Under the pieces are notes generated by a model, which did not search any database, was not told the DNA's origin, and saw only the letters and a program-made list of their open reading frames with translations. Position numbers and translations under genes: made by a program. Of a DNA stretch of 64,000 bases, positions 24,088 through 29,459 are shown piece by piece (position 1 is the stretch's first letter; each line of letters starts with the position of its first letter). The stretch comes from Chloroflexota bacterium (GTDB lineage Bacteria > Chloroflexota > Limnocylindria > Limnocylindrales > CSP1-4). Location of the stretch: contig SCUO01000100.1 of the NCBI GenBank assembly GCA_004297395.1, positions 80,418 to 144,417 of the forward strand. The letters run 5' to 3'.

Positions 24088-25905
24088 GTGACCGACCTCG
24101 CCCCGCTCTGGCAACGTCGCTTTCGAGCCCCGATCGTCGGCTTCCCGACGTGGTCGCGTCACGCGCCGGACCGGCTCGTCTACGCGTCGTCCGAGAGCGG
24201 GATCTACCAGCTCCACAGCTGGGACGTCCGGACGGGCGAGCGTCACCAGATCACCAACGAGCCGGTTGGGCTCGTTTCCGGGAACATCTCCGCCGACGGC
24301 GAATGGGTCCTGTGGCACCGCGACACCACGGGCGACGAATCCGGGACATGGATGGTCGCGCCGTTCAGCGGCGGCGAGGGTGAACCATTGGCCGAGGGCC
24401 TGCCCCGCGCCTGGGATGACGGGCTCGCGCCGGGCCGGACGCGCACCGCTGTCGTCATGTCCGACAAGGACGGCTTCGGGCTGTTTGTCATCGAGGCGGA
24501 CGGCCGAACCCGGCGGATCGCCCACTCCACGGAATCGATCATCCTCGGCGGCGGCAACGCGATGACCCGGGGCGGCCACGAGCTGGCCGGCCTCAACGCC
24601 GACGAGACGCTCATCGCGATCGAGCACGGCGAGCACGGCGACCTCATCCATCCGGCGCTGCGGGTCCTCGATTCCCGCACCGGCGAGGTCGTCGCAGACC
24701 TCCTAGATGCCGGCAAGGAGCTGGTCAACTTCGCCTGGTCTCCGATCCCCGGCGACGACCGTATCGCGATCGGGCACGAGCGGCGGGGCGAGCGGGCGCC
24801 CGCGATCTGGAGCCCGCGAACCGGGGAGGTCCGCGACCTGGTGCTGCCCTGGGAGCGTTTCACCGAGGTCACCGACTGGTGGCCGGACGGCTCGGCCGTC
24901 CTCCTCGTCGAGCTCCGTGACGGGCGCGATCACCTGCATCGGTACGACCTGGCCACGGACACGGTCACGGAGCTCCCGACCCGGCCCGGCTCCATGACCG
25001 GCGCCCGGGTCCGGCCCAACGGGGCGGTCTGGTACCGGCTCCAGGCCGGCGAGCACCCCGGCATCCTGTTCGAGGTCGGGCGCGACGAGCCGATCCTGAG
25101 CGGCGGCGACGCACCGGCCGGGCGCCCCTTCATCCCGTGGTCGTTCCAGAACCCCCACGGCCAGACCGTGACCGGCTGGCGGATCGTGCCCGAGAACGTC
25201 GGCCCCTGGCCGACGCTCGTCCACGTCCACGGCGGGCCCACCTCCATCGACCTCGACCGCTGGTCGCCCGAGATCCAGGCATATGTCGACGCCGGGTTCC
25301 AGGTCGTCCTGGTGAACTACCGCGGGTCGATCGGCTTCGGCGCGGCCTGGCGGGACACGCTCATCGGGAACATCGGCTGGCCCGAGATCGAGGACGTCCT
25401 CGCCGGCGTCGACGACCTGCTCGCGAACGGCCTGGCCGACGAGGCCAGGCTCGCGATCGCGGGCTGGTCGTGGGGCGGCTACATCACGCTTCTCATGCAC
25501 GGCATGCACCCGGATCGCTTCCGCGCGGGCGTCGCCGGCGTACCGGTGGGCGACTACGCCCTCGGCTTCGCCGACCTCTCGCCGCTCCTCCAGGCCTACG
25601 ACCGGGCGCTCCTCGGCGGCACGCCGGCCGAGGTGCCCCAGCTCATGGCCGAGCGCTCGCCGATCTCGTACGTCGACAACGTCAAGGCCCCCATCCTGTT
25701 CCTGGCCGGCGAGGCCGATTCACGCTGCCCGATCGGCCAGGTCCTGGCCTACACGGACCGCCTCGCGGCCCGCAACCACCCCCACGAGCTGTACCTCTTC
25801 CCGACCGGCCACGCCCCGTTCCAGATCGACGAGCGGGTCCACCAGACCGGTGTCGTCCTCGACTTCCTGGCCCGTCACGTGCCCGGGATTCGCGTCCCGG
25901 GCTGA
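24088..25905 (+). CDS. S9 family (prolyl oligopeptidase/acylaminoacyl) peptidase
   Basis: HGGP, NYRGS.GFG, nucleophile GWSWGG, DSRCP and GH catalytic triad after a propeller-like N domain. Confidence 0.92.
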   Translation: MTDLAPLWQRRFRAPIVGFPTWSRHAPDRLVYASSESGIYQLHSWDVRTGERHQITNEPVGLVSGNISADGEWVLWHRDTTGDESGTWMVAPFSGGEGEPLAEGLPRAWDDGLAPGRTRTAVVMSDKDGFGLFVIEADGRTRRIAHSTESIILGGGNAMTRGGHELAGLNADETLIAIEHGEHGDLIHPALRVLDSRTGEVVADLLDAGKELVNFAWSPIPGDDRIAIGHERRGERAPAIWSPRTGEVRDLVLPWERFTEVTDWWPDGSAVLLVELRDGRDHLHRYDLATDTVTELPTRPGSMTGARVRPNGAVWYRLQAGEHPGILFEVGRDEPILSGGDAPAGRPFIPWSFQNPHGQTVTGWRIVPENVGPWPTLVHVHGGPTSIDLDRWSPEIQAYVDAGFQVVLVNYRGSIGFGAAWRDTLIGNIGWPEIEDVLAGVDDLLANGLADEARLAIAGWSWGGYITLLMHGMHPDRFRAGVAGVPVGDYALGFADLSPLLQAYDRALLGGTPAEVPQLMAERSPISYVDNVKAPILFLAGEADSRCPIGQVLAYTDRLAARNHPHELYLFPTGHAPFQIDERVHQTGVVLDFLARHVPGIRVPG

Positions 25906-26013: not shown

Positions 26014-26547
26014 ATGCGGATCATCGGCGGCCTCCTGCGAACCTTCATCGTCCTGACCCTCGTCGCCGGTGCCGCGTCGGCGATCGCAGCCTTCTACGCC
26101 AAGGGCCGGCTCGTCTCGAAGGCCGAGCCGGACGACGACGAGCTCGACCTCGTCGCCATCTACGAAGGGCTCGACCTGTCGAGCCAGGCCCCGGCCCTGC
26201 GCCGGGCGTCATTCACCGCGTGGTACGGCGGCGGGACGCTCGATCTCAGGGGCGCGACCCTCGATCCGGCCGGCGCAACGCTTACCGTGCGGGCGGTCTT
26301 CGGCGGCTTCCGGCTCGTGATCCCGGCGACGTGGCGGGTCGAGCTCGCGACGGTCGGGATCTTCGGCGGCATCGGCGACGGGCGGCAGAAGGACGCCATC
26401 GATGCCGGCGGTCCCATCCTCAGGATCGAGGGCTTTGCCGTCTTCGGCGGCGTCGGGATCGTGTCCGATGCGCCCGACCTCGACGACGACCGTATCGAGG
26501 CCCCGGCCGATGGCCCCGAGTGGGAGGCCGCGCCGGTCCTCGCCTGA
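26014..26547 (+). CDS. LiaF/DUF2154-like cell-envelope stress protein
   Basis: One N-terminal TM, then AIYEG, YGGGTLDLRGA, AVFGG.RLVIP..WRV and GIFGG motifs. Confidence 0.7.
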   Translation: MRIIGGLLRTFIVLTLVAGAASAIAAFYAKGRLVSKAEPDDDELDLVAIYEGLDLSSQAPALRRASFTAWYGGGTLDLRGATLDPAGATLTVRAVFGGFRLVIPATWRVELATVGIFGGIGDGRQKDAIDAGGPILRIEGFAVFGGVGIVSDAPDLDDDRIEAPADGPEWEAAPVLA

Positions 26548-26571: not shown

Positions 26572-27501
26572 CTACGGACGGAGCGTGGAGCCCATCGGGA
26601 TGCCGTCGACGAGGTAGATCCCGGTCGGGCCGCTGACGTCGATGTCGTACGTCCACGCGCCGTCGTACGCGACGAGGTCCGCGGAAGTCACGACCGACCC
26701 GTCGACGGCATCGCCCGCCCGGACATCGGCGAGGCGGCGCCCGTCGGCCAGGGGATGGCCCGGCGACGCCGTGACCGTCCGCCTGTCGGCAAGCACGAGG
26801 CGGACGACGCGGTGGCCGACCGGGGCCGTCGCTGACCCCACCGCGATCACCGTGCCGCGGACGCGGCGCCCCGCCTCGTCGAGCGTCCAGACGAGGTCGC
26901 CGACTCGAAGCCCCTCGACCGCGCGCGACCCATCGGGGGCATCGATGCGTGTCCCGCGAGCGAGGCAGATCGGGCACATCGGCTCGCCGGCCGCGGCCTG
27001 CTGCTCGACGCTGACCTGGCCCGTCGCCGAGATCGTGCCGGCGGTCCGGATGCCCTCGGCCGCCCCGGCCCGCGGCTGGGCCAGGTAGTCGAAGCCCCAG
27101 GCGTCGTCGCCGATCGGGTCGAGGGCGATGGCGTTGAGGACCTTCCAGGTTCGATAGACATCGAGCCTGGCGTTGTCGTCGAGGTCGCCGTCGGGATCGA
27201 GGCCGAGCCGCGCGGTGATCGCCTCGAACGCCTCGCGGTCGGCGACGACCTCGGGCCAGCGCTCGCGGGCCGCCTCGATCTCGTCCTGGCGCTGGATCGG
27301 GTAGAAGTCGGGATCGCAGTACCAGAGCGGCCCCAGGCGGTCGATGAGCGCGACCTTGCGCTCGGCCGGCGTCAGGGCGGGACCCGGCGTCGGGCCGGGC
27401 GTCGCGCTGGGGCCGGGCGTCGTCGACGGCGCTGCGCCGCCGGCGCAGGCCGCGAGGACGAGTGCGACCAATCCGGCAAGGAGGACCCGGCGGGGCTTCA
27501 T
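26572..27501 (-). CDS. lipoprotein with a C-terminal Hint (Hedgehog/intein) domain
   Basis: Lipobox LAAC after a hydrophobic stretch and a Pro/Thr linker. The Hint starts CLARGTRI (Cys codon 26965-26967), with VEGLRVGD.V, TASPGHP and TYDIDV....IYLVDGIPMGS. Confidence 0.85.
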   Translation of the reverse strand: MKPRRVLLAGLVALVLAACAGGAAPSTTPGPSATPGPTPGPALTPAERKVALIDRLGPLWYCDPDFYPIQRQDEIEAARERWPEVVADREAFEAITARLGLDPDGDLDDNARLDVYRTWKVLNAIALDPIGDDAWGFDYLAQPRAGAAEGIRTAGTISATGQVSVEQQAAAGEPMCPICLARGTRIDAPDGSRAVEGLRVGDLVWTLDEAGRRVRGTVIAVGSATAPVGHRVVRLVLADRRTVTASPGHPLADGRRLADVRAGDAVDGSVVTSADLVAYDGAWTYDIDVSGPTGIYLVDGIPMGSTLRP

Positions 27502-27565
27502 GACCGGCTGACGCGGCCGCCGAGGGGTCGGTTCCGCGGCCGCTGCTCGAACCGGCACCGGCCGG

Positions 27566-28658: not shown

Positions 28659-29459
28659 ATGTCCGACCAGCTCTCGCTGCGGCTCGAGCCGGCGCTCCCG
28701 AACCCGCCGACCTCGCTGCGCCCGATGCTGGCCCGGCCCCTCCCCGAGCCGTTCGATTCCGCCGACCATCTCTTCGAGCCGGCGTGGGGCGGCCGGCGAG
28801 CCCTGGCCGTCATCGGCCCGGCGGAGATGCCCGGTGGCGGCGATGTCACGTTCCTCGACGAGCGAGGTGAGGAGCTGCCGCTCGTGCCGCCCGAGCTCGC
28901 CGGCCTCGGCGTCCGGGTCGCGGCCCGCTCGGCAGTCCTCGACGGCGAGCTGGTGGTCGTGGATGCGAGCGGCCGCGCCGACCCGGTCGAGCTCGCCCGT
29001 CGACTGGCGGGTGAGCCTGGCCGGCCCGTCGCGTTCCTGGCCTTCGACCTCCTGGACCTCGACGGCCGGCCCCTCCTGTCGCAGCCGTTGGAGCGCCGGC
29101 GCGACCTGCTGCGTCGCGTGCTGCGTCCGGGCGACGAGGTCCTCGCCGTGCCGGCGATCCCCGGGGAGGGGCGGGCGCTGTTCGCCGCCGTCGCCGCGCA
29201 GGGCCTGGCCGGGATCCTCGCCCGCCAGCGCTCGAGCCCCTACCTGCCCGGAACCCGGAGCCGCCTCTGGCGGTTCATCCCGGTCGCCGGCCGGGTCGCC
29301 GCCGGGGCCGACGGCGCCCCTGGGGCAGGCGCGACCGGCACCGATGGCGCCGAAGGCGTGGGCGGCGCGGTGGGCGACGGGGGCGTCGCCGGGAGCGCGC
29401 CAGTCCTTGCCCTCATCCGCCGCCTGCCGCTCGGGCTCGACGAGCCGGTCGAGGGCTGA
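28659..29459 (+). CDS. ATP-dependent DNA ligase adenylation-domain homolog with degenerate catalytic motifs
   Basis: PMLA, LDGELV, AFDLL.LDG, PLERRR.LL and SPY.PG.RS.LW are retained, but motif I reads EPAWGG instead of E.KWDG. Confidence 0.75.
   Translation: MSDQLSLRLEPALPNPPTSLRPMLARPLPEPFDSADHLFEPAWGGRRALAVIGPAEMPGGGDVTFLDERGEELPLVPPELAGLGVRVAARSAVLDGELVVVDASGRADPVELARRLAGEPGRPVAFLAFDLLDLDGRPLLSQPLERRRDLLRRVLRPGDEVLAVPAIPGEGRALFAAVAAQGLAGILARQRSSPYLPGTRSRLWRFIPVAGRVAAGADGAPGAGATGTDGAEGVGGAVGDGGVAGSAPVLALIRRLPLGLDEPVEG

Follow-up and report, generated by a model that had tools for sequence, protein, structure and literature searches.

Hint domains that release or modify an attached cargo are best known from Hedgehog, and bacterial combinations of a cargo with a Hint domain are, to our knowledge, few and poorly characterised. 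A candidate for such a combination is encoded on the minus strand (26572-27501) of the DNA analysed here, a stretch of 64,000 nucleotides from a Chloroflexota bacterium (Limnocylindria; Limnocylindrales; CSP1-4; GenBank assembly GCA_004297395.1, contig SCUO01000100.1, positions 80,418 to 144,417), referred to as the window. With Hedgehog and Hog proteins the predicted product shares its layout, an exported cargo followed by a terminal Hint domain that forms a thioester at its first cysteine (Cys1) and releases the cargo. Hedgehog, however, has a sterol-recognition region after the Hint, whereas the window protein ends four residues past it; the Hedgehog Hint puts a lipid on the C terminus of its cargo, whereas here lipidation is predicted at the N terminus via the bacterial lipoprotein pathway; and the Hedgehog cargo is unrelated to the N-terminal domain (N-domain) of the window protein. 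A Pfam scan of this protein gave no match to the Hedgehog Hint family. Class 1 mini-inteins such as gp41-1 have the fold, Cys1, the S/TxxH motif of block B and the block F aspartate in common with the window Hint, which, in contrast to them, lacks the C-terminal Asn, the penultimate His, a C-extein and a host protein, does not sit within a conserved gene, and has Thr306 at the +1 position.

Callahan et al. reportedly described in 2011 a redox trap of an intein between Cys(-3) and Cys1. According to a review (PMC3922620), such a disulfide was engineered in the Ssp DnaE intein (CPGC) and is native to the P. abyssi MoaA intein, which confirms the precedent invoked in the original prediction for this locus. 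Traps of this kind and the window protein share the C-P-x-C spacing over the N-terminal scissile bond with Pro at -2, but the former belong to cytoplasmic splicing inteins, whereas the window protein is predicted to be exported, has a third invariant cysteine (Cys62) and comes from a family in which Cys(-3) persists without the Hint. Bacterial intein-like (BIL) domains are divided into type A, with the C-terminal His-Asn of inteins, and type B, which lacks similarity to block G and undergoes cleavage without splicing (Amitai et al., 2003; Dassa et al., 2004; both via PMC4031507). Like the window Hint, they are bacterial Hint domains outside an intein context, typically in secreted proteins; Hint_2 is the best Pfam match, and a BIL structure is among the top fold matches (see below). 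Here, by contrast, the Hint is confined to the C terminus, where a tail of four residues follows it, and is part of a lipoprotein with a novel cargo, an invariant CPxC junction and a Gly-Ser/Thr end. It differs from type A in ending x-S/T-L without His-Asn, and its lack of the block G His-Asn likens it to type B, by description only. Judged by these sequence features, the window protein carries a terminal Hint of the BIL/Hog type on a lipoprotein with a new cargo, and is neither an intein nor an A-type BIL protein.

We propose that this Hint probably cleaves the protein at Ile178-Cys179 and leaves a lipoprotein that ends in ...Cys-Pro-Ile-COOH and contains a Cys62-Cys176 disulfide, a reading based on conservation, structural models and naturally truncated relatives. 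The features of the gene are:

27448..27501, minus strand: signal peptide MKPRRVLLAGLVALVLAA, residues 1-18, with a charged n-region and a hydrophobic h-region as read by eye
27445..27456, minus strand: lipobox L16-A-A-C19, Cys19 being the predicted lipidated first mature residue
27373..27444, minus strand: Pro/Thr/Ser-rich flexible linker, residues 20-43, varying in length and sequence among homologs
26977..27372, minus strand: N-domain, residues 44-175 (~130 aa), comprising four or five helices and, after them, an antiparallel sheet of four strands
27316..27318, minus strand: codon of Cys62, invariant and the proposed disulfide partner of Cys176
26965..26976, minus strand: junction Cys176-Pro177-Ile178/Cys179 (TGC CCG ATC TGC) with the predicted scissile bond Ile178-Cys179
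26587..26967, minus strand: mini-Hint, residues 179-305, identified by Pfam Hint_2, Foldseek and a family profile searched against the PDB
26755..26766, minus strand: block B S246-P-G-H249 (TASPGH249), equivalent of the intein TxxH and aligned with S-E-E-H of gp41-1
26644..26646, minus strand: block F Asp286 (TYD286IDV), aligned with the block F Asp of gp41-1 and of consensus inteins
26572..26592, minus strand: Hint end and tail G304-S305/T306-L-R-P309 with the stop codon, aligned to ...ILTHN/S of gp41-1

By profile match and predicted fold, the C-terminal part is a Hint domain. It matches Pfam Hint_2 (PF13403) over residues 178-263 with 39.9 bits (cut-off 28.4; E = 7e-10), so that the assignment stood when checked with a Hint hidden Markov model. 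Of the seven distant Hint-bearing members of the family, three pass the Hint_2 cut-off and four stay below it, with P0170 giving no match. An AlphaFold2 model of the full protein, built with 82 homologs in the alignment, has a mean predicted local distance difference test score (pLDDT) of 82, with values mostly between 79 and 97 in the Hint part and below 50 for residues 1-38 (signal peptide and most of the linker). In Foldseek searches the Hint part matched the C. thermocellum BIL domain 2lwy, which we take to be an A-type domain with His-Asn (template modelling (TM) score 0.78), the gp41-1 intein (TM 0.75), Hedgehog 6tyy (TM 0.74) and also the Mtu RecA intein; scores in this range (0.74-0.78) are normalised to the target, with E values down to 4e-7. 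A family Hint profile built from 24 diverse members matched, among PDB sequences, the gp41-1 intein (E = 7e-5), the engineered consensus intein (CatC), the Ssp DnaE intein, the Cth BIL domain and the Hedgehog entries 1at0 and 6tyy. The model thus supports the predicted folding of this domain as a Hint related to inteins, BIL domains and Hedgehog, and the domain order returned by Pfam, the model and Foldseek agrees with the Hedgehog-like layout, cargo plus terminal Hint, that had been proposed for an exported lipoprotein. The individual elements read from the sequence in the original prediction (lipobox LAAC, Pro/Thr linker, N-domain, CPIC junction, TASPGH, TYDIDV and the GS-TLRP end) were all found where they had been placed.

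The profile alignments map C179 to Cys1, S246-P-G-H249 to block B and D286 to the block F aspartate, and put G304-S305/T306 at the positions of the intein His-Asn/+1. In 82 close homologs C19, C62, C176, P177, C179, S246, H249, D286 and T306 are invariant; in an alignment of 40 members with 35-53% identity to its first sequence, the same holds for C62, C176-P-I-C179-L, S246, H249, T284, D286 and S305. Over the whole range of 35-90% identity no member departs from Cys1, S/TxxH or the block F Asp, and the Cys1 codon is TGC or TGT in 91 of the 92 family loci that were read as DNA. Going by sequence, all residues for an N-S acyl shift are present and those for Asn cyclisation and splicing are absent, as had been foreseen: the protein ends DGIPMGS305-T306LRP, with Gly304-Ser305 in place of His-Asn and only T-L-R-P beyond the Hint. 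Given Ser instead of the terminal Asn and no real C-extein, neither intein splicing nor C-terminal cleavage is expected. Conservation and Hint matches together lie far beyond chance, and this combination of sequence and model indicates that the Hint very probably self-cleaves, at Ile178-Cys179.

The position of the scissile bond, which the original prediction had placed between Ile and Cys within EPM-C176-P-I-C179-LARGTRI, is where natural orthologs terminate. At least 13 of 150 listed representatives end at C-P-x, one residue before Cys1; counted over N-domain representatives, the figure is 13 of 64. DNA was read for nine such stop-form loci (L019, L020, L021, L102, L103/L104, L105, L106, L107 and L108), and eight of these have a real TGA, TAA or TAG stop with no intact Hint downstream. 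In L021 (...TCPL-TAA) no Hint is found in any frame; in L103/L104 (...ACPL-TGA) the next gene is 70 nt away on the opposite strand; and in L105 (TAG), L106, L107 and L108 (TGA) the next gene comes directly after the stop, and in L106 it encodes the S9 peptidase also found beside the Hint gene of Limnocylindria. L102 (...ACPN-TGA) continues into a decayed Hint remnant (PAAHTQIDAPQCG, followed by a stop), and in L019 the TGA is followed by non-Hint sequence up to the contig end. The ninth locus, L020 (positions 1845-1847 of a Logan SRR32799305 contig), has TGA at the Cys1 codon and then an intact Hint in frame (C-P-I-TGA-L-A-E-G-T...). Where a contig end truncates a protein, the break falls at varying positions, so the C-P-x endings cannot be an assembly artefact. 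The stop forms, 13 in all, are spread over a tree of the N-domain: 13 changes are implied by the best tree, and at least three are required by strongly supported branches. It therefore appears that the Hint was repeatedly replaced by a stop exactly at the predicted scissile bond, and nowhere else. Most simply read, these sequences mean that the N-domain with a ...C-P-x-COOH end is the functional product, the same one that N-terminal cleavage by the Hint would make. The Hint-less orthologs would then serve as a built-in control that encodes the "already cleaved" product and locates the cleavage site without biochemistry.

The residues around the bond differ in what the stop forms retain. All 13 still have Cys(-3) and Pro(-2), whereas Ile at position -1, present in 79 of 81 proteins with Cys1, occurs in only four of the 13 (Fisher p = 3e-8), the other nine having V, L, T, N or R. 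Since Ile is relaxed while Cys and Pro are kept, Ile(-1) would serve the Hint, and Cys(-3) and Pro(-2) the cargo. The truncation footprint, the relaxation of Ile(-1) and the argument for a Cys62-Cys176 pair (see below) are newly described here.

On this basis, the following sequence of events can be envisaged. After export, Lgt and LspA would lipidate Cys19 and remove the signal peptide, and the Pro/Thr linker would keep the novel ~130-residue alpha+beta domain at the membrane surface, as the sequence suggests. An N-S acyl shift at Ile178-Cys179 would be catalysed by Cys1, Ser246/His249 and Asp286, to which the fold, the catalytic residues and the evolutionary footprint all point, and the thioester would most likely be resolved by water. 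The Hint with its four-residue tail would be shed, leaving a mature lipoprotein that ends in ...Cys176-Pro177-Ile178-COOH, and a Cys176-Cys62 disulfide, for which there is moderate support, would staple this C-terminal tail to the invariant YCDPDFYP loop. The family represents a compact, abundant and purely bacterial cargo-and-Hint system of ~270 mature residues with a natural CPxC at the scissile bond, and a small extracellular Hint beside a disulfide could suit protein engineering.

Several points weigh against cleavage by simple hydrolysis with a stapled tail. Firstly, the Hint_2 match covers only positions 1-95 of the 147 of the profile. Secondly, most lineages keep a Hint of ~130 residues although a stop codon could replace it, and hydrolysis alone leaves no reason for this. 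Thirdly, the strong conservation of Ser305 and Thr306 has no place in a hydrolysis model; in the deep family alignment T306 is at least 90% conserved, and members end 3-5 residues beyond S-T. Fourthly, mean-field couplings, which rank W60-P143 at 65 and W60-G172 at 114 of 36,315 pairs (top 0.3%) and are weakly consistent with a Cys62-Cys176 pair, come from 265 sequences (~180 effective) in which C62 and C176 are both invariant and cannot covary.

The retention of the Hint hints at an extra role, for example in timing, folding or the formation of a C-terminal adduct, and this retention and the conservation of Ser305 and Thr306 are the reason why we leave a small share of our expectation to extra chemistry. 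It is conceivable, if rather unlikely, that the Hint is kept for chemistry beyond that which a stop codon provides, either a three-Cys relay (Cys179 to Cys176 to Cys62) or a transfer of the Ile178 carbonyl. Possible acceptors for such a transfer would be Cys176 (giving a C-terminal thiolactone), Thr306 (a branched ester) or an amine or lipid of the envelope, and a transfer, if true, would be a bacterial counterpart of the C-terminal modification of Hedgehog. Ligation of the new C terminus to a cell-surface molecule had been considered in the original prediction, but the recurrent Hint-less orthologs are hard to reconcile with it: they are incapable of forming a thioester, so ligation would not be essential to the function of the N-domain. 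Moreover, the four residues after the Hint include no sterol-recognition-like or other adduct-recruiting segment, and the open reading frames (ORFs) of the 92 loci include no conserved transferase or reductase neighbour. From this sequence evidence, an obligatory C-terminal adduct is unlikely.

The original prediction had seen in the CPIC motif a redox gate, in which a Cys176-Cys179 disulfide would block the acyl shift in the oxidising envelope until reduction sheds the Hint, with a possible passage of the thioester to a surface nucleophile. The conservation check that it called for gave a clear result, as Cys(-3) is invariant in the 82 close homologs and the 40 divergent members. CPIC is found in 83 of 86 motif-bearing representatives and in nearly all of the 92 loci, so that the CPxC motif (-3 to +1) is nearly invariant wherever the Hint is present, and the family profile aligns with the trapped DnaE precursor 3nzm, which adds to the intein precedents cited above. 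In addition, the genome of the window encodes a VKOR homolog (G000:C95:10380-10748, 72 bits), which suggests that exported proteins of this Chloroflexota lineage acquire disulfides in the actinobacterial/cyanobacterial style; pairs of exported cysteines are thus expected to be oxidised. The Hint-less forms, however, speak against the gate, because Cys(-3) and Pro(-2) persist in 13 of 13 of them without a Cys1 to pair with, and a conserved CxxC alone is therefore no evidence of a redox lock. A reductase that might open the lock is likewise not among the conserved neighbours noted above.

The distribution of cysteines points to a different partner for Cys176. Of 144 complete proteins, 142 contain C62 and C176 as the sole cysteines of the N-domain; 12 of 12 Hint-less forms likewise have two, and in 146 of 148 proteins Cys1 is the single cysteine of the Hint. 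Cys62 lies in an invariant loop of the N-domain, L59-W-Y-C62-D-P-D65-F-Y-P68. The tandem members P0141, P0170, P0249 and P0234 have two N-domain copies ahead of a single Hint, and only the copy adjoining the Hint has a CPx tail. The distal copies of P0141, P0170 and P0249 keep the equivalent of C62 and have a cysteine in the loop joining beta2 and beta3, at the end of the sheet where the C-terminal tail also lies; the distal copy of P0234 lacks the C62 equivalent and has two cysteines in that loop. The cysteine count, the relocated cysteines, the couplings and the VKOR homolog favour a Cys62-Cys176 pair, so that the sequences lend moderate support to a disulfide within the cargo and to Cys179 as a lone catalytic thiol. 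A redox lock as the main job of Cys176 appears unlikely from the same data, and we regard the gate as a whole as improbable, though a transient Cys176-Cys179 disulfide is conceivable.

The invariance of all three cysteines and the fixed CPxC spacing would both be covered by a relay coupled to folding, in which Cys176-Cys179 forms first and Cys62 of the folded N-domain then takes over Cys176, freeing Cys1 to cleave. Such a relay is compatible with Hint-less forms that still have Cys62 and Cys176 and with the extracytoplasmic disulfide machinery, and would give most lineages a reason to keep the Hint when a stop codon yields an identical end product. It is, however, wholly inferential, with an intermediate that is invisible to sequence data; the Cys62 loop is of low model confidence; and the Hint-less lineages evidently fold without it. 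We accordingly give it little credence.

Degenerate, non-catalytic Hint-like modules exist, and the loss of the C-terminal His-Asn together with the partial coverage of the Pfam profile might be taken to mean that the window Hint does not cleave but stays attached as a binding or structural module. This is very improbable given that the N-terminal catalytic residues are invariant across the deep family, that truncations recur at the Cys1 codon and nowhere else, and that Ile(-1) is constrained only where the Hint is present. Selenocysteine at Cys1 of some relatives (C-P-I-U, a selenoester-forming Hint; the window gene itself has TGC) is hardly credible, since L020, with its TGA, in-frame Hint and unrelaxed Hint/N-domain identity ratio (0.958 vs 0.959 +/- 0.07), is a single case against eight DNA-read stop forms without intact Hint, two of them using TAA or TAG, no TGA form occurs in 301 + 401 reference genomes, its downstream hairpin does not outperform shuffled sequence (z = +1.2), Rfam gives no match, and TGY to TGA is a single-step nonsense change. 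The TGA of L020 is more likely a recent nonsense allele or a read error. As a general explanation of C-P-x endings, selenocysteine was rejected because the other stop forms lack a Hint and no signal like a selenocysteine insertion sequence (SECIS) is present.

The gene itself is an ORF of 309 codons (26572-27501, minus strand) with an ATG at 27501 and a stop codon at 26574-26572, giving a protein of 309 aa. A GTG at 27558 is a possible alternative start upstream, but the homologs argue for the ATG, as their N termini align at this Met and begin MKxR. The protein combines a signal peptide with a lipobox of the bacterial pattern [LVI][ASTVI][GAS]C, its L-A-A-C19 being invariant among the homologs, and the genome encodes Lgt and two copies of LspA. 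An exported lipoprotein with lipidation predicted at Cys19 is thus supported by sequence.

Relatives are numerous. A word-indexed search with the window protein returned at least 2,387 clusters, of which the best 120 are all full length with 60-90% identity and, where named, are "Hint domain-containing protein" from Chloroflexota or Candidatus Limnocylindrales. In the reference-genome collection 421 loci encode a relative; the best 80 of these are nearly all from Chloroflexota metagenome-assembled genomes and span Anaerolineales, Ardenticatenales, Limnocylindria, Herpetosiphonaceae and Thermoflexus, the few labelled as other phyla probably being binning errors. By these searches, the family is large and restricted to Chloroflexota. 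Its occurrence is patchy: the gene is present in 24 of 301 genomes sampled across the phylum, many genomes of the window's own family in this sample lack it, and in the class to which locus L023 belongs (Chloroflexia or Anaerolineae by its record labels) 10 of 401 genomes have it. The genome of the window has a single copy; a weak match on its contig C48, considered as a second Hint, proved to be a PAS/EAL protein. In two reference genomes (G085/G535, contig C9:115921-116687, and G248, contig C152:36-871) the gene is broken into two reading frames inside the Hint, near residues 190-220, and these copies are either pseudogenes or assembly frameshifts.

The N-domain had no match in Pfam, NCBIfam or a PDB sequence search. 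Modelled alone it reaches a pLDDT of 90.6, with low confidence in the Cys62 loop, and a Foldseek search of this model against the PDB found no neighbour (best E = 0.1, TM <0.27). Weak matches to BcsR/BcsP and PsbQ were dismissed as noise. By sequence and model, it is a new extracytoplasmic domain of Chloroflexota without structural relatives in the PDB. Searched alone against 1.84 billion representatives, the N-domain has 324 relatives, and all complete ones that retain the Cys1 codon also carry the Hint; a word-based search for short proteins consisting of the N-domain only found little. In the distant members P0237 and P0255, one or two PG_binding_1 domains replace the lipobox upstream of N-domain and Hint, so that, judging from their domains, the anchor is swapped from lipid to peptidoglycan. 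This places the N-domain at the cell envelope and suggests a role in the envelope or cell wall. A literature search for Hint_2 or PF13403 matched only unrelated papers on HINT2.

The Hint gene lies 64 nt downstream of a gene for a DeoC-family aldolase. On its other side, a 605-aa peptidase of the S9 (prolyl oligopeptidase) family is encoded at 24088-25905 (plus strand), convergent with the Hint gene. The same arrangement is found in 19 of the 92 loci (L072-L101, L106), mostly in Limnocylindria and once with a Hint-less form; as the peptidase lacks a signal peptide, synteny at the class level is probable rather than a functional link. Clustering of the ORFs of the 92 loci, in which many clusters are spurious Arg-rich ORFs of high-GC DNA, brought out synteny within single classes only: the Limnocylindria have the apparently cytoplasmic S9 peptidase together with the atp operon, the Anaerolineae have small genes unrelated to these, and no partner gene is conserved across classes. 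Between the S9 and Hint genes of the window, a 177-aa ORF at 26014-26547 (plus strand), likewise convergent with the Hint gene, has one N-terminal membrane helix, a Gly-rich beta-like C-terminal half and no Pfam match; it is absent from the loci of relatives, where the S9 gene directly adjoins the Hint gene. Further along, at 28659-29459 (plus strand), a 266-aa ORF has as its sole match the adenylation domain of ATP-dependent DNA ligases (PF01068, E = 2e-13), and is short for a complete ligase.

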